IMG/VR virus record: IMGVR_UViG_3300025838_000001
Coordinates: 1-64,000 of that record
Origin: a virus
DNA: 64,000 nt
Reading direction: 5' to 3' (one strand)
The position numbers and the translations under genes are program-made. The notes beneath the pieces are model-generated. The model worked only from the letters and a program-made list of their open reading frames with translations, was not told where the DNA came from and made no database searches. Positions within the stretch are counted from its first letter, which is position 1. The number at the start of each line of letters is the position of its first letter. Below are positions 1 through 56,392 of the stretch, one piece after another.

Positions 1-156
1 TACCTGATCCCTTACCTGATCCCATACCTGAGCCCTTACCTGATCCCCTACCTGAGCCCATACCTGAGCCCCTACCTGATCCCATACCTGAGCCCATACC
101 TGAGCCCCTACCTGATCCCTTACCTGATCCCTTACCTGAGCCCCTACCTGAGCCGG
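1..156. repeat. In-frame 12-nt tandem repeat, 13 units (TACCTGA[T/G]CCCN), runs off the window edge
   Basis: Direct reading: units at 1-12, 13-24 ... 145-156. Variation is almost confined to unit positions 8 and 12. Confidence 0.95.
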
Positions 157-414
157 ACTAATTACTTTTGCAAGCACCCCACTATTAAAAATATTTTTCA
201 AATAACCGACAGCATACTGGCAAGCCATAGGGGAGTCAACAAAAATAACTATAGGATTTTTGTATCCGGCTAATTGATACATCCAATTAATCCCCTTAAT
301 ACACTCTTCTTTATTTAATTCTGTTTTGCAAGAAAAAAAACGGTCTAGCCATTCATCCCTCACTTGATACATTAATTCAACTTGTTCGGGTGTTAATTTT
401 TCTATCTTATTCAT
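1..414 (-). CDS. Hypothetical protein, N-terminal part only; becomes Q-V-x-[A/D] tetrapeptide repeats
   Basis: ATG at 414 (MNKIEKLTPEQVELMYQVRDEWLDRFF...), open to position 1. Absent from the ORF track because there is no stop in the window. The repeat translates AQVGAQVRDQVRDQVGAQVWAQVWDQV... Confidence 0.7.
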   Translation of the reverse strand, partial: MNKIEKLTPEQVELMYQVRDEWLDRFFSCKTELNKEECIKGINWMYQLAGYKNPIVIFVDSPMACQYAVGYLKNIFNSGVLAKVISPAQVGAQVRDQVRDQVGAQVWAQVWDQVGAQVWAQVGDQVRAQVWDQVRDQV

Positions 415-3263: not shown

Positions 3264-4601
3264 TTAGTTGTTTGAAAATGTTCCAAAGTGGAATGCTTTT
3301 TGAATATTTTTCAGTGCGATACTTTTTTTGTCTACAATCACTCTTCTGCCCAATTGATGAACTCCACCTGTTACTTTTCTTTCTCCTTCTATCCACACCA
3401 AATCCTTTGGCTGTATGGCATAACGCTGTTTGCGGATAGAAGGCGCAAAGCCTTTTCGATTGAGTTGCAATACCCGATTATTCTTGTGTTTCTGAATGAT
3501 CTCTACCGGCTCAATCCTTTGCTGATCGCCTCCACCGGCAATGACAAAAGCATCATTATAATGCGTCTTTTCTATCTGCAGTGCTATTCTGTTCACAAAA
3601 GTGATATAGCCGTAGCTTACTTTTAGATCAGGCACATCGGCCCAAAATTTCTTTCTGATAATAGCCATGTAGGTATTTGGCTTATAGCTTTTTGGTGCGG
3701 CTAATTTGAGTTTCTTTTGATGCAATCGGTCATGGCACTTTTTATGTAGTATTGCCAAGTTCTTTGCACGATTACTGCCGGTTTTATTTCTTTCCAGGCA
3801 GTGGTGAATATGTGATGGCTGGCCTTTAGTAAAGGGCTTATGGCATAATTGGCAACATCCCCTTTCTCTTGCCATCAGGTAGCTGCGCATATTCTGATAT
3901 CCGTACATATCACCCTGCTGATAATCCACACCTTCAATTTGAAAATTCTCAATTTTGGCAATATCGAAATTGGCTACTTCGATGGTAACACTACTGATGG
4001 GCAGTACTTTCTTTAACTGCCTGATGATCTTTAGATGGGTGTCATAACGCCGTTGGGTAGATGGCGGCAACCATCCTTCTTTTTTCTTACGATTCAAAAA
4101 ACGTGGTTTACGATACCAAAGTTTGTTCCTACGACCTCTGCGGTACATGCGTCTTTCAGTCAGCCGTTCAGAAGTCTTGCCATCCATAACTACGGTTCCA
4201 CAAGCAAGCTCTTGAGTTGCCGATACGCATGAATACCCAATATTCTGATAACCGCTATCAATACCCATCTGTACGTCCTGTATCTTGTTCTCACAAACAA
4301 AATTCAGGCGGATGGTAAAAGGATAACAGGTAACCACACTGGCTCTTTGAGATTTAAGCAGCTTGCGAGCTTTAGCCTGGCTACAGGGCATGAGCGGTGA
4401 TCCTTCAATGGATAATACATACACAACGGCTTTAGGCCCACCTGTATGTTGGTGTAGATCCACATCGAGATTGTTAGCAGAGGTTTTTGAGCCTGCCACA
4501 CTAAGAGTTTCCTCTTTGTTTAATGGCAGACCACAGTTGCTACGGACTTGTGGAGCATCCGTAGGTGTGTTCGTTGTCGTTCTCTTTGCTAACTGCTGCA
4601 T
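3264..4601 (-). CDS. iscB: IscB, RuvC-HNH RNA-guided nuclease (OMEGA system, Cas9 ancestor)
   Basis: PLMP domain VVYVLSIEGSPLMPC; RuvC-I GIDSGYQNIGYS; Arg-rich bridge helix RRMYRRGRRNKLWYRKPRF; RuvC-II VTIEVANFD; HNH CQLCHK...HIHHC...N...LHKKCHDRLH; RuvC-III THYNDAFVIAGG. The true start is probably the GTG at 4424 (386 aa). Confidence 0.9.
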   Translation of the reverse strand: MQQLAKRTTTNTPTDAPQVRSNCGLPLNKEETLSVAGSKTSANNLDVDLHQHTGGPKAVVYVLSIEGSPLMPCSQAKARKLLKSQRASVVTCYPFTIRLNFVCENKIQDVQMGIDSGYQNIGYSCVSATQELACGTVVMDGKTSERLTERRMYRRGRRNKLWYRKPRFLNRKKKEGWLPPSTQRRYDTHLKIIRQLKKVLPISSVTIEVANFDIAKIENFQIEGVDYQQGDMYGYQNMRSYLMARERGCCQLCHKPFTKGQPSHIHHCLERNKTGSNRAKNLAILHKKCHDRLHQKKLKLAAPKSYKPNTYMAIIRKKFWADVPDLKVSYGYITFVNRIALQIEKTHYNDAFVIAGGGDQQRIEPVEIIQKHKNNRVLQLNRKGFAPSIRKQRYAIQPKDLVWIEGERKVTGGVHQLGRRVIVDKKSIALKNIQKAFHFGTFSNN

Positions 4602-4693
4602 AAATTCTAAAATTTAGTGGCCCTCTAATCAACCAATTGCTCTTGCAGATCACTCCGCAAGCCCCTTAGGCTTTAGCCTAGGGGGTGATTGAC
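4425..4693 (-). ncRNA. Candidate IscB omega-RNA (HEARO-type) scaffold
   Basis: Lies immediately 5' of the IscB-homologous region. The first 59 annotated codons have no IscB counterpart. Hairpins at 4662-4684 (9 bp plus bulge) and 4540-4564 (7 bp). Inferred from position only, not from a covariance-model search. Confidence 0.5.
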
Positions 4694-7777: not shown

Positions 7778-8081
7778 CTAACTGTTTTTTAAACGTGTTA
7801 AAATATGCTTGTTTATCTCCTGTTTGCAGGTATAATCCTATTGACTCATCCTCTCTCTGTTCCTTTTGTATTGCCTTTCTTATCCTTTCTTCTTCCGTAA
7901 CAATCTTTCTTGGCTTGATCACTCGAACCGGCTTGGGTTTCAAATCTGCCTCTGTTCCTTCTATTACATTCATTGCTGATTTACATTGAGGACAAACACC
8001 TTCGTTTGGTCCATCCTCATCAAAACCAAATATTGCTAGATGGTTGAAGTGTATGTTACAAGATGTACAGACGTAACTCAT
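7734..8081 (-). CDS. Zinc-ribbon protein
   Basis: CTSC...(24 aa)...CPQC pair. Confidence 0.5.
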   Translation of the reverse strand: MSYVCTSCNIHFNHLAIFGFDEDGPNEGVCPQCKSAMNVIEGTEADLKPKPVRVIKPRKIVTEEERIRKAIQKEQREDESIGLYLQTGDKQAYFNTFKKQLDGYPGSDTSAQPAE

Positions 8082-8087
8082 TTAATA

Positions 8088-8711
8088 TCAAAACGGTAAA
8101 TCGTCTAAAGGTTCTTTTAATTCTGCCGGATTTTGAATTGAATTTTCCTTAGACAATCCCGATTCTGTACCAGGCTGATCAAACTCAGTCTCTCCTTCAG
8201 CCAAGAACTCAGAAACAAAAGTTAAACTCAACAACCATTTCTTCCAGAACTCAATCTGTTTAGATCCGTCCCATTCAACATCACCCTTCCACTCACGGCT
8301 TTCCACCGGAGGAAGTTCACCCATGTTATCCTTAGTAAAAGCGTGTTTAAGCGGCTTCCCTGATTGAGTAACAAAACAGGTTGTTTGTGGCTTACCATCT
8401 TTTAATTTATGGCTGGCAGATATACGAACTTTCATCGTAGGATCACCAGTACGCAGGGAATTGCAAAAACCACGGAAGTATCCGCTGTCTGTACGCATCT
8501 GCAATAAAAACCGTTCCCCTTTGTCTACTATTGTAAACTGGGCAACCTCATACTTCTTACCATTGTACTCGTCCTGTTTAAAATCCACCTTAACGATAGT
8601 GCCGGAGAGTGATTGGAAGAAGTCTGGCTCACCACCTTTCTCTTTGGTGTACAGTTTGCCCTCTTTGATATTGACATACGTAACTCTTCCTGAATCTTTT
8701 TCAAGTCCCAT
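8088..8711 (-). CDS. Single-stranded DNA-binding protein (non-canonical body, canonical acidic tail)
   Basis: C-terminus ...EPLDDLPF is the SSB-type protein-interaction tail. Beta-rich N-terminal body; replication-module context. Confidence 0.55.
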   Translation of the reverse strand: MGLEKDSGRVTYVNIKEGKLYTKEKGGEPDFFQSLSGTIVKVDFKQDEYNGKKYEVAQFTIVDKGERFLLQMRTDSGYFRGFCNSLRTGDPTMKVRISASHKLKDGKPQTTCFVTQSGKPLKHAFTKDNMGELPPVESREWKGDVEWDGSKQIEFWKKWLLSLTFVSEFLAEGETEFDQPGTESGLSKENSIQNPAELKEPLDDLPF

Positions 8712-8818
8712 TTTGTTTTTGTTTTATGTTTTTTACGGAAAATGTTTTCAATATACTCTTTACTGTGACCACTGGCCGCTAGTGAAAGAGCCTCCATAGC
8801 GTCATCGGTTATCATACC

Positions 8819-8968
8819 CTACTTCTTTTTGTTTTTCCTTGCCGCCAAAGCCTCCTGAACAAGGAGACATACCATGCTGCTAAAAGAAGTCTCTCTCTTC
8901 TCCTTAGCCCTTTCCTTATGTACTTCCGCTATTACGGTATCTGGGAAAGACGAGTTGATCTGTGCCAT
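8819..8968 (-). CDS. Small basic protein (49 aa), possible RHH-type regulator
   Basis: ATG at 8968, TAG at 8819-8821 (MAQINSSFPDTVIAEVHKERAKEKRETSF...). Below the ORF-track cutoff. First gene downstream of promoter/operator copy 2. Confidence 0.4.
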   Translation of the reverse strand: MAQINSSFPDTVIAEVHKERAKEKRETSFSSMVCLLVQEALAARKNKKK

Positions 8969-9012
8969 TGATTTTTGTTTGGTGAATAATACTTTTCTGA
9001 CATGTATTGAAA

Positions 9013-9065
9013 TGCTAAGATAATGTACATTACATTACAATCCAAATAAATTGAAAAATATTTTT
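9013..9065 (-). promoter_or_regulatory. 53-bp promoter/operator element, copy 2
   Basis: Identical to 679-731; palindrome TAATGTACATTA at 9021-9032. Confidence 0.6.
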
Positions 9066-9153
9066 TAGGCGGGTAGAATTTAGCGTATAGGGACCGTGGC
9101 ATAATCGAGTACCAAGCCCACGCACAGACCCTTTGCTTCTCTTTTTAGCGAAA

Positions 9154-9297
9154 GTTTTGATCAATAATAGTTTTTACTTTCACGGGAGATTCTTGGCTTT
9201 TAAAAGCACCGAAAAGAAAGATAATCAGAAAGGAAATGGGAAAGCTAATAACTAATCTTTATGTTAAATGGCGCACAGCGAACTTCCTTGTTTTTTT
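9154..9297 (+). repeat. Inverted-repeat arm L (44-nt perfect core 9154-9197, then diverged blocks)
   Basis: The core GTTTTGATCAATAATAGTTTTTACTTTCACGGGAGATTCTTGGC is the exact reverse complement of 10676-10719. Further shared blocks: AAAAG[C/T][A/G]CCGAAAAGAAAGA, AAATGGGAAAG, TAATAACT, TTATGTTA, AACTTCCTTGTTTTTTT. Confidence 0.9.
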
Positions 9298-9366
9298 CCC
9301 ACGCTTCACTTGTAACGGTGAGGAGTATTAAAGGGAGAAACAATGACAAGTCATTGTGTGGAGTTT

Positions 9367-10272
9367 CTAATTAAAAAGTTCAGGAGGTTTGCTATCGTTT
9401 CGAGAATTGTGTTTTAAAATCTTTGTTACTACATAAGATTTATTTACAAAAGTATTTGCTATTGCATCATATTCCATTAAAATATCCATTTCAACTTCTA
9501 GTGTATCTCCCAATCTAAACGCTTCGCCTTTTTCTATTTTCCCCGAAAAAGCATCATCGTTTATTTTGGCAACTATTCTATTCCCTTTATAATAGAACTC
9601 CCACTTCTTTTTTAGAGAAAAATCAATTCCGCCTATAATGTTTAAAAGTGCGTCTTGAACTGTTTCATTTTTTTGGGTAGGCCCAATTTTATCTGACCCA
9701 GATTGAGCAATATCTGCGAAATCTTCTTTTGGTATTTCAACTGAATTTTCTTTGTTTTTAGGATCAATTACCTCAAATCCAGTAACACCATTATCCGCAT
9801 CTAATGTTTCAAAAGTTTGTGACATGTGCTTTTCGATTGCACTATTTTGATATATTTTATATACCCTATTGTCAATGTAGGTAACATTTCCTTTTACATC
9901 CTCAATTTTTACTCCATTATTTGTTGTTTCAATATTCTTTGGGCTTTTCCCTTTTAGAAATTTGAATATTTTATACGCACCCGTTAAAAGACCAATAACA
10001 TCTTTGGCATGGGTTAAGTTTTCATGGGTAAAAAGTTGAGCTACATTTTGTATGCTTTGAGATAAAATAATTAAATCTATTTCAAAACTTCCGGGCTTCG
10101 GACTGGCGTTAATTCTGACTTCTATTTTTTTTGTTTCATCTATCTCTGCACTTATTTCTTGTATGATAGCTGTAAAGTGCAGAAAAGAATTAATAAAGGT
10201 ATTAGCCTCTATTTGGTGAGATGGGCCATCAAATTTTACTTTTAACTCTTGCATACCCGTAACATTAGACAT
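9367..10272 (-). CDS. Orphan 301-aa protein, unknown function, AT-rich cargo between the inverted repeats
   Basis: Long ORF that is visibly more AT-rich than its flanks. Own TACTTTTG -7 box (complement of 10353-10360). 8-bp hairpin ACAATGAC..GTCATTGT lies just 3' of the stop. No motif recognised. Confidence 0.7.
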   Translation of the reverse strand: MSNVTGMQELKVKFDGPSHQIEANTFINSFLHFTAIIQEISAEIDETKKIEVRINASPKPGSFEIDLIILSQSIQNVAQLFTHENLTHAKDVIGLLTGAYKIFKFLKGKSPKNIETTNNGVKIEDVKGNVTYIDNRVYKIYQNSAIEKHMSQTFETLDADNGVTGFEVIDPKNKENSVEIPKEDFADIAQSGSDKIGPTQKNETVQDALLNIIGGIDFSLKKKWEFYYKGNRIVAKINDDAFSGKIEKGEAFRLGDTLEVEMDILMEYDAIANTFVNKSYVVTKILKHNSRNDSKPPELFN

Positions 10273-10480
10273 ATAAATAGATTTGGTTGCGGGGGGAGAT
10301 ATTAAACTTAAAGATTATAATTGATTCCCTAACCTTCTATTTTTTAATAGAACAAAAGTACAGTATTATACTAAAAATTTAGAATAAACTACTATAAAAT
10401 ATAAATTAATTAGGATAAAACACTTTGGTGCCCATGGGGCACCCCTTCCCAATTGATTATAGCGAAGGGCCCCGCCACAC

Positions 10481-10719
10481 AAAAAAACAAGGAAGTTCTT
10501 CCCGCAACGTGGCTTTTTTAAGCTACGCAAAATAAAAAAGCCCCTTCACAGGGGCTAACCAAGTAACATAATGTTGAGTTATTATCTTTCCCATTTATCT
10601 GTTTAAACTCTTTCTTTTCGGCACTTTTAGGGATTTTGTCCCACCTACACATTACCTGGAAAACAAAATCCCTACGCCAAGAATCTCCCGTGAAAGTAAA
10701 AACTATTATTGATCAAAAC
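10481..10719 (-). repeat. Inverted-repeat arm R (44-nt perfect core 10676-10719, diverged blocks, two arm-specific insertions)
   Basis: Block-by-block alignment to arm L. Arm R-specific insert 1 is a 12-bp perfect hairpin (10628-10674). Insert 2 carries back-to-back terminators (about 10473-10556). Confidence 0.9.
10529..10556 (-). terminator. Rho-independent terminator inside arm R
   Basis: Minus strand: AGCCCCT-GTGA-AGGGGCT followed by TTTTTTATTTT. No protein gene lies upstream on that strand. Confidence 0.6.
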
Positions 10720-10809
10720 AATGCCTTCGTGAAATATTTTTCATAAAATTTTATAAATATTTTTCTTCCAGTAGCCCTGTGGGTATTTTATAGTCTAAAA
10801 ATAATCACC

Positions 10810-11028
10810 ATGGCTTCAAATGCGTTTAAAGTAAACGTCTACGAGATCAACGGTATTCCGCAGAAAAACATCTATCAGATCGGTTTCCCAGATTCCGGTG
10901 CGTGTTTGTTTTTAAACTACACGGGTAATAACCCTTTGTGTAATGCGTATGTACAAACGTTGAGTAATCAGTACCAGTATTCTGTTGCTGAAACTGTAGC
11001 GGCTCTGGTTACCCTGGCTAACACCTAG
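10810..11028 (+). CDS. Hypothetical protein (72 aa)
   Basis: ORF track; followed by a terminator. Confidence 0.5.
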   Translation: MASNAFKVNVYEINGIPQKNIYQIGFPDSGACLFLNYTGNNPLCNAYVQTLSNQYQYSVAETVAALVTLANT

Positions 11029-11054
11029 TGGTAATTGAGTTAAGAACCTATTAA

Positions 11055-11082
11055 ATAGCCCTGCTTGTTGGGGCTATTTTTG
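11055..11082 (+). terminator. Rho-independent terminator
   Basis: ATAGCCC-loop-GGGCTAT followed by a T-run. Overlaps the stop of the convergent gene 11074-11463. Confidence 0.55.
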
Positions 11083-11463
11083 TTCCCTTTCATTAGCCCT
11101 TAACTCTATGAGAGGAACACCTTTAGACTCCATTTCTTCCAGCTCCGCATCTGTGTTGGTATTCAAGTATTTTTTACGCAAACTGATCACCGCTGCAAAC
11201 GTGTCTTCCATCTTCTTAACCATCTCCTGATAGTTTTTTATTGAATTGTCTTCAAGTGATAACTTAGATCCGTTTAACACCTTGGCCATCTCATTATTTT
11301 TTCTGTTCATGGCAAAATAAAGAGCAAACGGACTGTCTTTTTCAAAGCTGTCTACTACGTCCCGGAGGTATTCATTTTCTTCCGTTAAAGCGGCTATTTT
11401 TTGCGATTCCGTCATCTCGCCAGTAGGCTTTTTTTCAGGTATTCTTGTTTTTGTCGTTCCCAT
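11074..11463 (-). CDS. Hypothetical coiled-coil protein (129 aa)
   Basis: ORF track. Confidence 0.55.
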   Translation of the reverse strand: MGTTKTRIPEKKPTGEMTESQKIAALTEENEYLRDVVDSFEKDSPFALYFAMNRKNNEMAKVLNGSKLSLEDNSIKNYQEMVKKMEDTFAAVISLRKKYLNTNTDAELEEMESKGVPLIELRANEREQK

Positions 11464-11537
11464 TATTCAAAAATATTTATAAATTTTTTGTATAAAAAAT
11501 TATTTTAAAAATATTTATTCATTACTTTGTAGGCGTT

Positions 11538-11759
11538 ATGAATCAACCTAAACTCACAAAAGAAGCCGGTTACTTCCTGTTGGAGAACCCGGACCTTCTG
11601 GTAGAAGCCGCAAAAATGACCGGTATTAGCTATGCAGGTGTTACCTCTGCGGCTAAGAGAAGATCCACAACGCTTACTACCTACCACTTGGTAATGCTCC
11701 TGTCACGGAGAATGTACTTACCCCCTGAAAAAATAGTTGAGATAACTGAAAAGCAATAA
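11538..11759 (+). CDS. Small HTH-like protein, first gene of the chaperonin operon
   Basis: AAKMTGISYAGVTSAAKRR is a helix-turn-helix-like segment. Its stop lies 2 nt before groES. Confidence 0.4.
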   Translation: MNQPKLTKEAGYFLLENPDLLVEAAKMTGISYAGVTSAAKRRSTTLTTYHLVMLLSRRMYLPPEKIVEITEKQ

Positions 11760-11761
11760 TT

Positions 11762-12046
11762 ATGATTCCTATTGACAACAGAGTGCTTATCCTCCCTGAA
11801 CCTGCAGAAGACAAAGGACAGTTTATAACACCAGATACGGCTAGGCCAAAACCCATGAGAGGGAAAGTTATTGCCGTAGGTGCCGGGGAAAGGCGTAAAT
11901 CAGACGGAGGTCTTATGCCTATGACCTGTGAGGTGGGAGATACTGCCGTGTACTCTAAGTTTGGTGGGACAGATGTGGAGATTGATGGAGTCGAGTATGT
12001 GGTTATGAAAGAAAGCGAAGTATTAATGGTTCTTAAACCCGAATGA
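11762..12046 (+). CDS. groES: Co-chaperonin GroES (Cpn10)
   Basis: MIPIDNRVLILPEP...KPMRGKVIAVGAGER...EVGDTAVYSKFGGTDVEIDGVEYVVMKESEVLMVL aligns along the whole Cpn10 pattern. Confidence 0.85.
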   Translation: MIPIDNRVLILPEPAEDKGQFITPDTARPKPMRGKVIAVGAGERRKSDGGLMPMTCEVGDTAVYSKFGGTDVEIDGVEYVVMKESEVLMVLKPE

Positions 12047-13647
<1,601 letters not shown>

Positions 13648-13648
<1 letters not shown>

Positions 13649-25094: not shown

Positions 25095-28000
25095 TTCAAT
25101 TTAGATTTAAGTTTAATTAATTCTTTTTTTAATTCAATAACTTCTTTTTGTAGGTCGTATATTTCCTTTGTATGTAATTCTGTATAGTTTACTGATTTCA
25201 TACCATTACCATCCGTATTAACTAAGAAAGGATATACTTTTTCTACTTCTTGTGCTATATACCAAAAATGTTTTTGTTTGGTTGAATCTGATTTCCAACT
25301 ACCTACTACAAAATCAAACCCGTTATCAGTTTTATATCTATTTGTAATGTTCTTTAATCTAATATCTGAACTATTATAAAACGAACTTGCTGTAACAGAA
25401 GAAGCAAAAGTAGCCTGTTGTGAACTGTTAAATGATAAAGCAGTTATACCACCACTTACTAACGAGAGGTTTACCCCAGTTTGTGCAAGCAGTTGCATTA
25501 TTGTTGAACTAGCATATAAGTACCCATTCCCGGCAAGTGTTACAAATTGGTCTGTAGAACCATTTACATTTAACACGCCTCTTGTAGCAGAGGGAGCAAC
25601 AGCGAAATTATTTCCGCCTGCGCTAATACCATTACCTGCTGTAGTGTTCAATAAGCCACTAAACGCACCTGCACCCGCATATAACGCACCTGTACCTGTG
25701 CCTGAAGTAGAGCCAAGAGTAAATGAACTATTTGTACCGTCAAATATCCCAAATAAGGTATTCTTACCATTATAGATATTTAATGACCTGAATTGAGTGC
25801 TTCCATTATTATAACCATTATAATTTATGTTTAAGGTTGCAGATGCGTTTGAATTATAATAGCTGTTTATTTGGTCACTATTTGTATAGATATATTTAGA
25901 AGAATTGAAAAAGATATTTCCATTAACATATAAATCACCTGTCATTGGTGTACCTGAACCCGCAGATATTGGGAAATAAGTACTACTTGCTGAACCCGTT
26001 GTCAAATAAGTATTCACATCAAGCGCAAAAGTTCCCGCTGCCGTCATTTTAACGAATGAAGTACTGGCATAGGATAGCCCCGCTAAACTTGTTAGGTTGG
26101 TAGCCAATGGCTGCGCTCCTACGGTATTATAACTAATGGTTAAAGCAGATGAACCATTATACGTTGAACCACTGGCTGCACCCGAACCACTATTATTAAT
26201 AGTTAAAGAATTTGGATTATTTGCAGTAATGGTTATTGCTCCGCCTAAAGAAACGGCAGTACTATTTATTGTTATTGAACTGTTGGCAAGGTTAGCATTT
26301 GTTATCCCGGCACTACCTGAAAGGTTACTATTTACTAAACCAGTAATACCTGACCCTGAACCACTAAACGAACTTGCTGTAACAGAAGAAGCAAAAGTAG
26401 CCTGTTGTGAACTGTTAAATGATAAAGCAGTTATACCACCACTTGCTAACGAGAGGTTTACCCCAGTTTGTGCAAGCAGTTGCATTATTGTTGAACTAGC
26501 ATATAAGTACCCATTCCCGGCAAGTGTTACAAATTGGTCTGTAGAACCATTTACATTTAACACGCCTCTTGTAGCAGAGGGAGCAACAGCGAAATTATTT
26601 CCGCCTGCGCTAATACCATTACCTGCTGTAGTGTTCAATAAGCCACTAAACGCACCTGCACCCGCATATAACGCACCTGTACCTGTGCCTGAAGTAGAGC
26701 CAAGAGTAAATGAACTATTTGTACCGTCAAATATCCCAAATAAGGTATTCTTACCATTATAGATATTTAATGACCTGAATTGAGTGCTTCCATTATTATA
26801 ACCATTATAATTTATGTTTAAGGTTGCAGATGCGTTTGAATTATAATAGCTGTTTATTTGGTCACTATTTGTATAGATATATTTAGAAGAATTGAAAAAG
26901 ATATTTCCATTAACATATAAATCACCTGTCATTGGTGTACCTGAACCCGCAGATATTGGGAAATAAGTACTACTTGCTGAACCCGTTGTCAAATAAGTAT
27001 TCACATCAAGCGCAAAAGTTCCCGCTGCCGTCATTTTAACGAATGAAGTACTGGCATAGGATAGCCCCGCTAAACTTGTTAGGTTGGTAGCCAATGGCTG
27101 CGCTCCTACGGTATTATAACTAATGGTTAAAGCAGATGAACCATTATACGTTGAACCACTGGCTGCACCCGAACCACTATTATTAATAGTTAAAGAATTT
27201 GGATTATTTGCAGTAATGGTTATTGCTCCGCCTAAAGAAACGGCAGTACTATTTATTGTTATTGAACTGTTGGCAAGGTTAGCATTTGTTATCCCGGCAC
27301 TACCTGAAAGGTTACTATTTACTAAACCAGTAATACCTGACCCTGAACCACTAAACGAACTTGCTGTAACAGCCCCTGTTGCAGAAAGTGTATAAATCTT
27401 AGTCCATGAACCGTTATAATTCCAAATATCCTCTCCATAAGAAGCATTTAATTGGTGCAACATTTGATAACTGTTACCAGAATTTGCAATACTGAAATAA
27501 GGGCCTGCTGCAACTGAATTTGATGCTGTGCCTAACGCATTCATTAATGTGCCAGTAATTTGGCCAGCATAAAAAGAGCCAACACCAGTTCCAACCGTAC
27601 TTCCTAATGTAAGGGAACCCTGTGGCATAGTTGCATTCAAAGAACTATTGAAAACAAAAACATCAGAATAGGTTGACCCTGTTTGAGTAGTACTAATTTG
27701 TAAATGCCAATCGCCATAAGAAACCAGATCATTCATCATTCGCCAACTTCTTGAAGAAGTATTAGGTGCATAGTCAAAATAAAAAGCTGCTAAGTTTCCG
27801 CTACTATTTGAAGGAATGTGAAATGCTGCTGCTGCGGTTATTACCTGTGAACTATTTATTGTTAATGCAGTAGTATTACCGTTTGTACCTATGTACATTA
27901 TCCCCCCATAAGCGGAAATTTCTCCTTGCAAAGAGGCTCCTGTTGTAAAGTTTAATGAAGGTATTGCGGAACTCCCTGCGTTTACAGTCAATGCTATTGA

Positions 28001-29941
28001 TGTACTACCGCCAACGCCACTACCAAAAAGACCAGTACTTGATGATGTTATTGCACCCGCATATAACGCACCTGTACCTGTGCCTGAAGTAGAGCCAAGA
28101 GTAAATCCTGTACTATTTAATATTGCAGCATTTGTATTGTTGTATAATAAATAGACGGTTTTTGTTGCGCCTGAAAGCTGAATGCCCGCATCAATAGTGC
28201 TGCCCCCGCTTGTAGCATTTGAATACAAATTCGGATTATTGCTAAATACTAAATTACCTGTAATTGGTACAGAAGAAGTTGAACCTGCAAGAGGTACATA
28301 AGTACTTGCCCCTGTTGTTCTTACAAATGTTTTAGTAGCCACCCCGTAATATGCTGCGGTATCTGTTTGTGCAATTATTTTAGTGGTATCTACTGTCCAT
28401 GTTTGTGTTAATGCACCATTATAAGCAGTTCCAGTAAGACCATAACCAGTATTTAAATAATTAGCAGAAGCGGTACTTATTGATATATTAGCAGAGCCAT
28501 CAAAAGCTACACCGTTAATAGTTCTAGGTGTTTGTAATGTAGATGCGGTTGTAGCATTTCCCGTTAATGCCCCCACAAAAGTTGAAGTAGTTAAAGAACC
28601 TGAAGATGGGTTAAATGTTATTTTAGAAGATGAAGTATTTAAACTTTGAAAACCACCCCCACTATTTGTAACCCATAAAGGGTAATAAGTTGCGTTGGTT
28701 GAATTATTATCTGTTATTGCAGTTGTGTTTGAAGAAGAAGAATTACCGCTTAATGTGCCTATAAATAAATTAGCATACACGTTACCGCTTACATCTCTAG
28801 CCATTAATGTTGAACCTACGTTATTAGGAGTTGCATTTGTGGATATTGTTGCTGCCGTACTACCGTTATATGATGTACTACTGTACTGTAAATAAGTATC
28901 GAATGTTAATGTAGCCAAGTTGCTACCCAATGATATACCGCTTATTGTTGAGTTGGCTAAATCACTATTGGTTATTTTGGTTGTAGTTCGCCTATAAGGT
29001 GATAGCATTGTACTTGTATCGTAATACTTTACCCCTGCTTGTTTTTGTAAATAAGGTGATAGCATAAAGGCAGTATCGCTATACTTTATTCTTGTTGATA
29101 GCATACTAGCCGTATCTGAATATTTAACTATATTACCTGCATATACATTTGTAGCGGTCATATTACCACTTACTACTACTGATGACGGGGTAATATTTCC
29201 TAATGTTATTGTTAAATTTGGCGTTGTAGTTGGATTTGATACAGTACCCGAAACACCGTTAGCAGTAGTCATTGAAAAGGAAGAAACCCCTGATACTGCC
29301 GCTTGAATATTTTTTTGTAAACTATCTCTTACTGAAACTAAATCGCCCCCAGTTACAAGCTGTCCGACTGCCCGACCCGTATCAGCAACTAATGTTAAGT
29401 TACCTGTTAATGCACCTGCACCCCTTAAAGGATAGTTCGTATTAACATACAGTGATTTTCTAACGTAATAGGAATATGCTGTAGCGGTATCGGATATTTT
29501 TAAACGATTAGATAAAGCGTAGGCGGTATCCGATATTTTTAAACGATTAGATAACATGCCAGATGTATCATAATACTTTACCCCTGCCTGAAACTGTAGG
29601 TAAGGAGAAAGCATGGCTGCCGTATCTGAAATTTTTAAATAAGGATTACCCTGAGATGTTATTAAATTCCATTTATTGGGAGTTAGAGTACGATAGTATA
29701 GCAACCCACCAGATACTTGTATAATAGCACCTGAATAATACGCCAGGTAACTAAAATTAGCAGTTGTTGTATCTGGGAATACTCTCCGACTTACAATTAA
29801 CCCGGTATCTGCTATAAGTCCCCCTTTGGCATTATTTAAAGTAGTAGGAGCCCCCATAGGGCTGGTGTTGGGAAACTGAGAGTACCCCGCTATTGATCCT
29901 AAGACCAATAATAGGGCTATAAATATTTTTTTCATATTCAT
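25091..29941 (-). CDS. Tail fibre/spike-like protein with C-terminal S74 intramolecular chaperone domain
   Basis: 1616 aa, S/T/G/N-rich fibre-like body. C-terminus SSDIRLKNI...WYIAQEVEKVYPFLV...VNYTEL...coiled coil matches the Peptidase_S74 chaperone (about 25094-25385). The N-terminus looks like a signal peptide. Confidence 0.8.
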   Translation of the reverse strand: MNMKKIFIALLLVLGSIAGYSQFPNTSPMGAPTTLNNAKGGLIADTGLIVSRRVFPDTTTANFSYLAYYSGAIIQVSGGLLYYRTLTPNKWNLITSQGNPYLKISDTAAMLSPYLQFQAGVKYYDTSGMLSNRLKISDTAYALSNRLKISDTATAYSYYVRKSLYVNTNYPLRGAGALTGNLTLVADTGRAVGQLVTGGDLVSVRDSLQKNIQAAVSGVSSFSMTTANGVSGTVSNPTTTPNLTITLGNITPSSVVVSGNMTATNVYAGNIVKYSDTASMLSTRIKYSDTAFMLSPYLQKQAGVKYYDTSTMLSPYRRTTTKITNSDLANSTISGISLGSNLATLTFDTYLQYSSTSYNGSTAATISTNATPNNVGSTLMARDVSGNVYANLFIGTLSGNSSSSNTTAITDNNSTNATYYPLWVTNSGGGFQSLNTSSSKITFNPSSGSLTTSTFVGALTGNATTASTLQTPRTINGVAFDGSANISISTASANYLNTGYGLTGTAYNGALTQTWTVDTTKIIAQTDTAAYYGVATKTFVRTTGASTYVPLAGSTSSVPITGNLVFSNNPNLYSNATSGGSTIDAGIQLSGATKTVYLLYNNTNAAILNSTGFTLGSTSGTGTGALYAGAITSSSTGLFGSGVGGSTSIALTVNAGSSAIPSLNFTTGASLQGEISAYGGIMYIGTNGNTTALTINSSQVITAAAAFHIPSNSSGNLAAFYFDYAPNTSSRSWRMMNDLVSYGDWHLQISTTQTGSTYSDVFVFNSSLNATMPQGSLTLGSTVGTGVGSFYAGQITGTLMNALGTASNSVAAGPYFSIANSGNSYQMLHQLNASYGEDIWNYNGSWTKIYTLSATGAVTASSFSGSGSGITGLVNSNLSGSAGITNANLANSSITINSTAVSLGGAITITANNPNSLTINNSGSGAASGSTYNGSSALTISYNTVGAQPLATNLTSLAGLSYASTSFVKMTAAGTFALDVNTYLTTGSASSTYFPISAGSGTPMTGDLYVNGNIFFNSSKYIYTNSDQINSYYNSNASATLNINYNGYNNGSTQFRSLNIYNGKNTLFGIFDGTNSSFTLGSTSGTGTGALYAGAGAFSGLLNTTAGNGISAGGNNFAVAPSATRGVLNVNGSTDQFVTLAGNGYLYASSTIMQLLAQTGVNLSLASGGITALSFNSSQQATFASSVTASSFSGSGSGITGLVNSNLSGSAGITNANLANSSITINSTAVSLGGAITITANNPNSLTINNSGSGAASGSTYNGSSALTISYNTVGAQPLATNLTSLAGLSYASTSFVKMTAAGTFALDVNTYLTTGSASSTYFPISAGSGTPMTGDLYVNGNIFFNSSKYIYTNSDQINSYYNSNASATLNINYNGYNNGSTQFRSLNIYNGKNTLFGIFDGTNSSFTLGSTSGTGTGALYAGAGAFSGLLNTTAGNGISAGGNNFAVAPSATRGVLNVNGSTDQFVTLAGNGYLYASSTIMQLLAQTGVNLSLVSGGITALSFNSSQQATFASSVTASSFYNSSDIRLKNITNRYKTDNGFDFVVGSWKSDSTKQKHFWYIAQEVEKVYPFLVNTDGNGMKSVNYTELHTKEIYDLQKEVIELKKELIKLKSKLK
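25379..27372. repeat. Tandem duplication, 2 x 987 bp plus about 20 bp of a third unit, inside the fibre gene
   Basis: Register 25381/26368/27355. The 329-aa units differ by one residue (LSLASGG vs LSLVSGG). The antisense ORFs 26136.. and 27123.. begin identically, offset by 987. Confidence 0.95.
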
Positions 29942-55977: not shown

Positions 55978-56392
55978 GCGTGTAGCAAGTACATGTTTTC
56001 TAGTGTATAACTACCCTGAAAGGGTTCATACCTCAAACCAGCCGGACCGGGGGCGGGGTGCAAACGGATTCAATAGCGACCGGGTACCCCTGAAATCGCA
56101 AATCACAAAATTATTCCGCAACAGATTGAAAACCAGCGAATAATAACGGCTAAAAATTCGGCTATAATGTTAATTATGTTAAGTGGACAGGATGGCATAG
56201 ACCAGCCGGCTCCTCCCCTACCCTATTGCATGGGAGGAAACCAGGCAAATGAGTGATCGTAACATGTTTGAACAGGTAGGCGGATAGCTCCCTGCGCTGC
56301 GCTTGGGAGTAAGTAAACTAAGAAAGGGGAAAAATACGGTCTTTTTAGCCATCATTACTGTACTATAGATTTTAGTTGGTTTACTTTTGGTT

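Follow-up and report, generated by a model that had tools for sequence, protein, structure and literature searches.

A candidate dif-module-type gene cassette in a 71-kb tailed phage of probable Chitinophagaceae host

The 64,000-nt stretch of viral DNA considered here (IMG/VR virus record IMGVR_UViG_3300025838_000001, positions 1 to 64,000, referred to below as the window) contains, between positions 9154 and 10719, a segment in which a minus-strand gene for a 301-aa protein (ORF301) is enclosed by two long inverted arms, each of which holds near its inner end a 29-bp site built like dif, with an XerC-type arm, a short centre and an XerD-type arm. Other phages and a bacterial chromosome have these sites round different genes, and crossover points in recombinant contigs from metagenomes lie at them. 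The initial annotation of the segment had seen in it a cargo-carrying exchangeable element at a divergent gene boundary, and this is borne out by the finding that the bracketing sequences go round other genes on other replicons. On balance, and with the reservations set out below, we favour the reading that a tailed phage of 71 kb, the host of which is probably a member of the Chitinophagaceae (Bacteroidota), carries here a gene cassette of the "dif module" type, and that recombination would be carried out by the Xer proteins of that host.

The dif-like sites and the replicons that share them

Two dif-like core sites lie in the arms and a third lies elsewhere in the window:

9241-9269, plus strand: L site, 29-bp dif-like core; AAAGCTAATAA (XerC-type arm), centre CTAATCT, TTATGTTAAAT (XerD-type arm)
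10561-10589, minus strand: R site, 29-bp dif-like core; AAAGATAATAA, centre CTCAACA, TTATGTTACTT
56157-56184, plus strand: third dif-like site, canonical 11-6-11 (28 bp); TTCGGCTATAA, centre TGTTAA, TTATGTTAAGT

In the L and R sites both XerD-type arms face ORF301. The blocks TAATAACT and TTATGTTA that had been noted in this part of the repeats are indeed conserved, but it had been missed that they are parts of the 29-bp dif-like site. The XerD arm of the L site agrees at 11/11 positions with the dif predicted for Chitinophaga pinensis, Cytophaga hutchinsonii and others, the C. pinensis prediction being AATACTTATAA-TTTATA-TTATGTTAAAT (Kono et al. 2011, PMC3025954, supplementary file 2). In the XerC arm the agreement with C. 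pinensis is 8/11 for the L site, 9/11 for the copies in host DNA and 10/11 for a third phage (L088, described below), the site of which matches at 21/22 positions over both arms. A position weight matrix (PWM) made from seven published Bacteroidetes dif sequences was run over both strands (128 kb) with a gap of 6 or 7 nt, and placed the site at 56157-56184 first with 20.9 bits and the L site second with 20.4 bits, the next score being 11.1; in 100 locally shuffled windows the maximum was 14.9 +/- 2.2 bits on average and 20 bits was reached three times. The third site follows a terminator, within 480 nt of intergenic DNA. Its inner 14 nt (ATAA TGTTAA TTAT) are the reverse complement of the core of the 28-bp site in the host chromosome, and no junction variants were seen at it across 10 contigs.

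Relatives of the segment were located by pattern scans of public collections, and five of them are informative. A fragment of a bacterial chromosome (L025/L091) that carries gyrA and RNase R is orthologous to a contig (L038) from a Chitinophagaceae metagenome-assembled genome (MAG), the gyrA genes being 98% identical. The array on this fragment starts with a canonical 28-bp dif-like site, ATAACCTATAA, TTAACA, TTATGTTAAAT, which is aimed at a gene of 148 aa (gene148); an R-type site faces the same gene from the other side and is followed by a 135-nt palindromic spacer and by an L-type site that points to the next gene, so that the order follows the alternating C/D rule of dif modules. No integrase was found near the host array. 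In a second phage (L026), the DnaB-like and tail-fibre-like proteins of which have partial similarity to those of the window phage, L-type and R-type sites lie around a gene of 133 aa, and in the third phage (L088/L090) a gene of 74 aa is flanked by AACACTTATAA, CACACTT, TTATGTTAAAT and AACAATTATAA, CTAAATA, TTATGTTACTT. A 45-kb viral contig (L089) has ATAACTGATAA, CTAACTT, TTATGTTAAAT together with a window-like CCGAAAAGAAAG..GGAAAT block on the XerC side. Finally, contigs L001 and L002 hold an "empty" module in which the 28-bp site and an R site stand head to head with only GGCGCACAGCCCTAACC between them, the order along L001 being a forward and a reverse site, the spacer, a forward site, ORF301 and a reverse site.

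The cargo thus differs with the replicon, and family searches gave no match for the proteins of 133, 74 or 148 aa. The contexts differ as well, since gene148 is found in the host and also joined to two different phages (L020, L095). The arms of the sites are conserved and the centre varies by lineage: the window phage, phage L026 and the host, replicons between which junctions were seen, have the same centres for L and for R, the R arms and centre of the window recur in L025, L026 and L001, and L088 and L089 have the centres given above. Arms that are kept around centres that vary are the pattern to be expected of a tyrosine-recombinase core and not of an RNA gene or a promoter. The scans were otherwise sparse in their returns, with no match in IMG/VR to the first module pattern, one homologous locus (L038) among 47 matches to the module pattern in the genome collections, where the other 46 were chance AT-rich or unrelated sequence, and one related locus (L089) among the 31 found in IMG/VR with the outer block CCGAAAAGAAAG..GGAAAT.

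The arrangement of the window (variant A) was recovered from at least five samples, and three other variants depart from it at the left arm. Variant B (L001/L002; two samples, two assemblers) follows the phage from 10907 down to 9245 and then enters host-type spacer, the R site and the 28-bp site. In variant C (L009, 17 kb long) the opening 545 nt match phage L026 at 100% and are followed by window phage sequence, 9231-17028; the two alignments overlap at 9231-9331, mostly in sequence common to both phages, which puts the crossover within 9245-9331. Variant D (L020) has the phage left flank and the left arm to 9282 and continues into the host gene148 module. The crossovers of B, C and D all map within 9245-9331. 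On a further contig (L095) phage L026, on its GNAT-gene side, is joined to host gene148, the 28-bp site and a host kelch gene; the crossover lies in a shared stretch of 148 nt that contains the R site of L026, and is not one at the R site of the window. The junction contigs come from the same lakes as the phage, and those that join phage to host (L001/L002, L020 and L095) carry single junctions beside a canonical dif-like site. Some dozen distinct contigs cross the 44-bp repeat at the outer edge of the segment into arm-specific sequence, all of them in the orientation of the window.

It was also observed that L001 (1829-1886) and L002 (1466-1523), although neither sample nor assembler was the same for the two, stop at an identical base 32 nt past the 28-bp dif-like site, and that this end stretch has one base different from host contig L025. 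The shared end and the single difference suggest a repeat boundary or another strain or replicon.

The proposed exchange, its rivals and its likeness to known systems

Modules of plasmid dif (pdif) sites are edged by inversely oriented XerC/D sites and alternate between C and D types, with the replicon backbone as a C module (PMC13141974). By analogy the ORF301 segment would count as a D module, and everything else in the circular phage genome as a C module. The host XerC and XerD would recombine the L site of the phage with an L-type counterpart, or the R site with an R-type one, on a second replicon, which may be a co-infecting phage or else the host chromosome next to its dif. A single exchange would give a cointegrate, which is to say a phage-chromosome fusion or a hybrid phage such as may be preserved in junctions B, C and D and in L095, and a second exchange at the other site would swap the cargo. 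The centres of L and R differ at 3/7 positions, so recombination of L with R is not expected and the segment should not be flipped, in agreement with the single orientation seen. Both the binding and cutting of the sites by Xer and the order of the exchanges we infer from site anatomy and junctions. No tyrosine or serine recombinase domain, PF00589 included, and no other recombinase family was found by hmmscan of 21 window ORFs of at least 180 aa, to which the four longest (1065-1616 aa) did not belong, or among precomputed Pfam hits for the genes called on contigs all round the circular 71-kb genome. The wider proposal that integrase-less tailed phages of Chitinophagaceae use host XerC/XerD at dif-like sites to join the chromosome beside dif, and to trade single-gene accessory cassettes (candidate defence or exclusion genes) with the host and with each other, which would amount to a dif-module/IMEX system at work in tailed phages and in Bacteroidota, is a good deal more tentative, and we offer it as a serious possibility and not as an expectation.

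Several observations count against host Xer as the agent of exchange. The R site is a weak match when taken alone (6.6 bits by the PWM, with 9/11 in the XerD arm and 7/11 in the XerC arm), and is accepted as a site because it is the inverted paralogue of L and is conserved elsewhere. The centre is of 7 bp in all L-type and R-type sites, as opposed to the 6 bp of dif and pdif, and 6-bp centres are found at the host site (L025 2621-2648) and at 56157-56184 in the window. The inner motif of the XerC arm in the window sites is AATAA, as opposed to TATAA or CATAA. The junctions are metagenome assemblies, and their crossovers can be placed only within 24-148 nt of identical sequence, which would also serve homologous recombination. 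For the L020 junction to form, the phage L site with its centre of 7 bp would have had to recombine with a host site whose centre in L025 is a different one, of 6 bp. Neither a complete prophage nor one and the same phage backbone with its cassette fully swapped was recovered. A simple Xer model, furthermore, has no need of several features of the arms described below, namely the CACAGC repeats, the co-varying internal repeats, the hairpin with its four stems and the outer 44-mer.

These points bear most directly on a rival in which the arms are homology anchors only, that is regulatory or structural flanks common to co-existing phages and host and exchanged by ordinary or phage-promoted homologous recombination over 25-150 bp of identity, their resemblance to dif being incidental or vestigial. 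The crossover intervals cannot be narrowed to the 7-bp centres, the 95% identity with L026 over 9231-9331 reaches well past the core site, and the hairpins and repeats inside the module are left unexplained by Xer. However, this rival would make coincidences of the near-identity of both arms of the site to the dif of the host clade, with a spacer of the right order, of the conserved arms and variable centres across lineages, of the host array beside a canonical 28-bp dif-like site and of the strict alternation of orientation, and we regard it as unlikely, if still deserving of attention.

It would be markedly less probable again that the segment is a non-autonomous transposon, a foldback element or one like a miniature inverted-repeat transposable element (MITE) with cargo, the 44-bp terminal repeats of which are recognised by a transposase encoded elsewhere. 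The perfect 44-bp repeats do stand exactly at the border with unique phage DNA, and the module of L026 is also edged by a perfect inverted repeat, of 19 bp. Nevertheless the target-site duplication is absent, as had been noted initially (the flanks read GCGAAA on the left and AATGCC on the right), no transposase was detected in the 71-kb genome, the 44-mer has two copies in the window and none in IMG/VR and so belongs to this one element, and the outer arms are not common to the other modules, whose ends differ. The foldback or MITE-like architecture entertained in the initial annotation is accordingly given little weight.

Inversion of the segment, flipping the gene relative to outside promoters by site-specific recombination or by recombination between the 44-bp repeats, had been suggested too. 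The inverted repeats enclose a complete gene, and in Acinetobacter inversions take place between inversely oriented pdif sites that have identical spacers (PMC13141974). The window orientation in every one of the dozen or so informative contigs, the unlike centres of L and R, the promoter and terminator shielding that the gene has of its own and the failure to find an invertase in the 71-kb genome make this very improbable. Scarcely more credible is a protein gene set between two paralogous convergent genes for small RNAs, or between duplicated leaders: there is a minus-strand terminator in the right arm (10556-10539), and in each arm the 44-mer is followed at an equivalent place by a hairpin, the length of which varies, but Rfam is empty at the gathering threshold and at E<=1, the arms show no excess of folding over shuffled sequence (z -1.78 and +1.66), neither arm has a Bacteroidota-type promoter upstream and the left arm is without a terminator.

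The favoured reading, a cassette exchanged by host Xer, can be set beside several known systems. The closest are the dif modules of Acinetobacter Rep_3 plasmids, which likewise have inverted XerC-spacer-XerD sites round genes, C/D alternation and a backbone that is a C module, and there too the same module occurs in varied contexts and varied modules in the same context. In experiments with A. baumannii, pdif sites mainly gave cointegrates, with compatibility set by site sequence and with gene exchange following (PMC11705084); compatibility set by the centre, cointegrates as the main product and the absence of a dedicated recombinase would be further likenesses if Xer has the role here that the sequences suggest. 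The differences are that the carriers are a 71-kb tailed phage and a chromosome in Bacteroidota in place of a Rep_3/OrfX plasmid, that the centre is of 7 bp and not 6, that 90-135 nt are conserved on the XerC side of each site along with extra internal repeats and hairpins, and that the cargo is a defence candidate whereas there it is resistance or toxin-antitoxin genes. The segment would work in the manner of a dif module or of an integrative mobile element exploiting Xer (IMEX), but given the 7-bp centre, the carriers and the extra internal elements it is in the strict sense neither.

IMEX such as CTXphi, VGJphi and the Bacteroidetes microvirus proviruses resemble the window phage in having no integrase of their own, in their dif-like sites and, going by the single junction contigs, in being joined to host DNA beside a dif-like site. 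Bacteroidetes have xerC and xerD, integrase-less microvirus proviruses lie at dif-like sites in them, and CTXphi-like phages and BMV4-6 have two inverted dif-like sites per phage genome (PMC3091885). The known IMEX phages are, however, small single-stranded DNA (ssDNA) viruses, whereas this is a large tailed double-stranded DNA phage with inverted sites 1.3 kb apart round a gene, not folding into one site, and seen without a complete prophage.

At plasmid Xer sites the accessory sequences flank the XerC arm, a position taken here by the conserved blocks of both arms and of L089. The plasmid cores have central regions of 6-8 bp with accessory sequences adjoining, and cer, psi and mwr are thus like the present sites in a centre of more than 6 bp and in a conserved stretch beside the core (PMC2699498). 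Sites of the cer type are direct repeats that resolve dimers with PepA and ArgR or ArcA, whereas here the sites are inverted and the adjacent blocks, of 90-135 nt, have no known binding motifs. Integron cassettes share with the modules the single genes, the imperfect palindromes between the genes of an array and hairpins that are fixed in position and variable in sequence, and the IntI recombinase family is close to Xer; here, in contrast, neither IntI nor attI was found, a promoter belongs to the cargo itself and there are inverted core sites in place of a single attC. An attC reading was tried and dropped, as the palindromic spacers do not fit the R''/R' consensus as complementary boxes: GTTAAAT at the L site fits R' (GTTRRRY), and the partner (AAGTAAC or CCCTAAC) neither fits R'' (RYYYAAC) nor complements it. 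In the promoter/stem-loop (PeSL) cassettes of T4-type phages, which shuffle ORFs in the way that the homology-anchor rival would, conserved non-coding motifs stand on either side of accessory ORFs of the early region and favour their exchange as modules between phages. Small accessory ORFs between conserved non-coding motifs are common to both; the PeSL motifs, however, are direct repeats that act through homologous recombination, with neither dif-like anatomy nor a host chromosomal counterpart. In the literature searched, which was not exhaustive, dif modules were described in Acinetobacter only and Xer-exploiting phages among ssDNA viruses only.

If the exchange works as proposed, the hijack of chromosome-dimer resolution would be a general route for cassette traffic between phage and host in an abundant freshwater lineage of Bacteroidota, and would account for the ability of phages without an integrase to join the chromosome of the host. 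Phage accessory genes would also be marked as defence or exclusion candidates, which would give a handle for finding such genes, and L and R would be natural heterospecific site pairs that resemble a built-in cassette-exchange system.

The cargo gene and the anatomy of the arms

Besides the core sites, the following features make up the segment:

9154-9197, plus strand: outer 44-bp perfect inverted repeat, left copy, marking the outer edge of the inserted segment
9198-9240, plus strand: XerC-side conserved blocks of the left arm; short hairpin GGCTTTTAAAAGCaCC, then CCGAAAAGAAAGA (9209-9221) and GGAAAT
9274-9279, plus strand: CACAGC, 6-bp direct repeat, left copy, beside the XerD arm
9280-9297, plus strand: module-internal 18-bp inverted repeat GAACTTCCTTGTTTTTTT, left copy
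9298-9331, plus strand: conserved sequence past the stop codon of the cargo gene, CCCACGCTTC...GGTGAGGAGTA
9339-9358, minus strand: short hairpin just downstream of the ORF stop, ACAATGAC/GTCATTGT; a weak terminator candidate that failed the terminator scan
9367-10272, minus strand: cargo gene, 301 aa, member of phrog_3243 and of PADLOC candidate PDC-S42
10353-10360, minus strand: -7 promoter box of the Bacteroidota type, TACTTTTG; the cargo ATG lies about 80 nt downstream
10427-10443, minus strand: terminator-like hairpin GGTGCCCCATGGGCACC, part of a block (10426-10500) that is conserved in L026 as well
10481-10498, minus strand: module-internal 18-bp inverted repeat, right copy, 18/18 with the left copy
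10511-10542, minus strand: hairpin in the stretch that separates the R site from the module-internal repeat; position conserved, stem different in each of four modules
10539-10556, minus strand: intrinsic-terminator-like hairpin AGCCCCTGTGAAGGGGCT followed by a T run, overlapping a CACAGG copy at 10547-10552
10590-10675, minus strand: XerC-side conserved blocks of the right arm; CCGAAAAGAAAGA at 10609-10621 and a 43-nt hairpin insertion
10676-10719, minus strand: outer 44-bp perfect inverted repeat, right copy, 44/44 with the left copy

ORF301 is present as first described, is more AT-rich than its flanks (GC 0.29-0.35 against 0.37-0.44) and has its 3' hairpin visible in the sequence; the -7 box was recovered by pattern scan, and is the sole match to TAnnTTTG. 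It is not, on the other hand, the orphan that it had been taken for: there are 40 homologues at 27-50% identity, it belongs to phrog_3243 (E 1.7e-35), and the hidden Markov model (HMM) of PDC-S42 (PDLC05015), a candidate single-gene defence system, covers residues 8-290 of 301 with E 3.7e-34. There was no match in Pfam. An AlphaFold (AF2) model has a pLDDT of 82, a fold search of the PDB gave nothing below E 1e-3 and a weak OB-fold-like resemblance in the C-terminal part only, and the matches in BFVD were uncharacterised phage proteins only. Homologues lie directly beside prophage integrases (L003, L075), and others adjoin an SMC_N-like ATPase. Its own -7 box and the two terminator-like hairpins upstream (10556-10539 and 10443-10427) mark the gene as an insulated accessory gene; these, together with the match to a defence-candidate family, are in keeping with the "moron" that had been suspected. 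A candidate role in defence or exclusion is plausible.

One homologue was found inserted on its own in the dcw (cell-division) cluster of a Bacteroidales MAG, where it separates rsmH from ftsL (L076 8001-8894; JAQTZA010000005.1).

The perfect 44-bp core reported for the inverted repeats is there, and no such pair arose in 100 shuffles even with up to 3 mismatches allowed. The 44-mer is not in IMG/VR and the outer arms matched nothing across all related loci; the repeat is private to this phage, and is perfect while the sequence between it and the core has diverged. The blocks that were said to continue inward to 9297 and 10481 are likewise real, with 76% identity between 9201-9271 and 10559-10629 and 18/18 between 9280-9297 and 10481-10498. 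The right arm is the longer because of its 43-nt insertion after the 44-mer (10630-10672, a hairpin in which 10630-10639 pairs with 10663-10672) and of some 50 nt that set the R site apart from the 18-bp repeat. The XerC-side blocks of the left arm are common to the right arm and to L089 (L089 211-315 against window 9203-9307, 76%).

On the inner side of the sites, a CACAGC direct repeat adjoins both XerD arms in every module (window, L025, L026 and L088) and is reduced to a single copy in the "empty" module of L001/L002. A likeness of CACAG to the heptamer of V(D)J recombination was dropped as coincidence. An internal inverted repeat of 18-22 bp is present in every module, varying between modules and always matching its partner: the GAACTTCCTTGTTTTTTT pair is found again in L026, and L025 and L088 carry a different, again mutually matching, pair. 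Of the block beyond it, CCCACGCTTC is also in L025 and L020, with a related block in L088. The hairpin between the R site and the internal repeat is formed at the same place by four homologous stretches (z -1.9 to -4.1) with four unrelated stem sequences. Transposition of ssDNA as in IS200/IS605 was dropped as an explanation since the hairpin sequences differ between modules.

The module of L026 divides a perfect palindrome of 38 bp in the phage DNA exactly at its midpoint, into TCAATTAAGCCCCAAAAAG and CTTTTTGGGGCTTAATTGA (11160-11180 and 11970-11990), and no such palindrome surrounds the module of the third phage (L088). The conserved extra hairpins and repeats hint at a further, structure-specific step outside the Xer systems described so far, and together with the L026 palindrome suggest a second, structure-dependent layer.

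The phage genome and its other features

The window is most of a tailed phage genome, with genes for the large terminase, portal and virion proteins as well as for DnaB, GroES/GroEL and an N6/N4 methyltransferase. Two JGI contigs (71,152 and 71,176 bp) link the window ends through about 7 kb of glycosyltransferase and methyltransferase genes, so that the genome is of about 71 kb and circular or circularly permuted. Matches of 100% identity to the phage were found in many bog-lake metagenomes. Among GenBank phages there was no DNA match to window positions 8000-12000, in IMG/VR there were no relatives of the two proteins that neighbour the cassette, and a tRNA scan found none.

Directly to the right of the cassette region lies the pair GroES (Cpn10) and GroEL (Cpn60), at 11762-13648 on the plus strand. 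To the left, within the early-gene block, a minus-strand gene of the IscB type (3264-4693, 445 aa, RRXRR and HNH domains) is accompanied by its HEARO/omega RNA at 4454-4693 (Rfam RF02033, 119.9 bits), and the two are, as judged from sequence, an RNA-guided nuclease element resident in the phage. The segment had been described without this nuclease gene and RNA, which lie 4.5 kb away from it. An action of the element on the segment was considered and dropped, as nothing links it to the arms.

A 53-bp perfect direct repeat (679-731 and 9013-9065, 8.3 kb apart) frames the entire minus-strand early operon, the second copy being 89 nt to the left of the left arm, and may be a duplicated promoter or regulatory region. 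An AT-rich motif like AAAATATTTATAAATTTTT is found at 9045-9065, 10745-10764 and 11469-11489, in each case just upstream of a gene start and with its orientation alternating, and may be a phage promoter or translation-initiation motif. The region of about 7 kb that lies outside the window (L101/L104; JGI Ga0007867_1000031, 71,152 bp) encodes DUF1064, DUF6745, DUF5672, two glycosyltransferases and a methyltransferase, and is possibly a DNA- or surface-modification block. Further repeats occur in a tail-fibre-like ORF of 1616 aa, part of which is common to phage L026; it contains an internal tandem duplication of 987 bp that is 100% identical (25379-25724 / 26366-26711) and a further repeat (28052-28106). 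Finally, a 12-nt tandem repeat is present at the start of the window (1-160), which may be collagen-like (Gly-X-Y).

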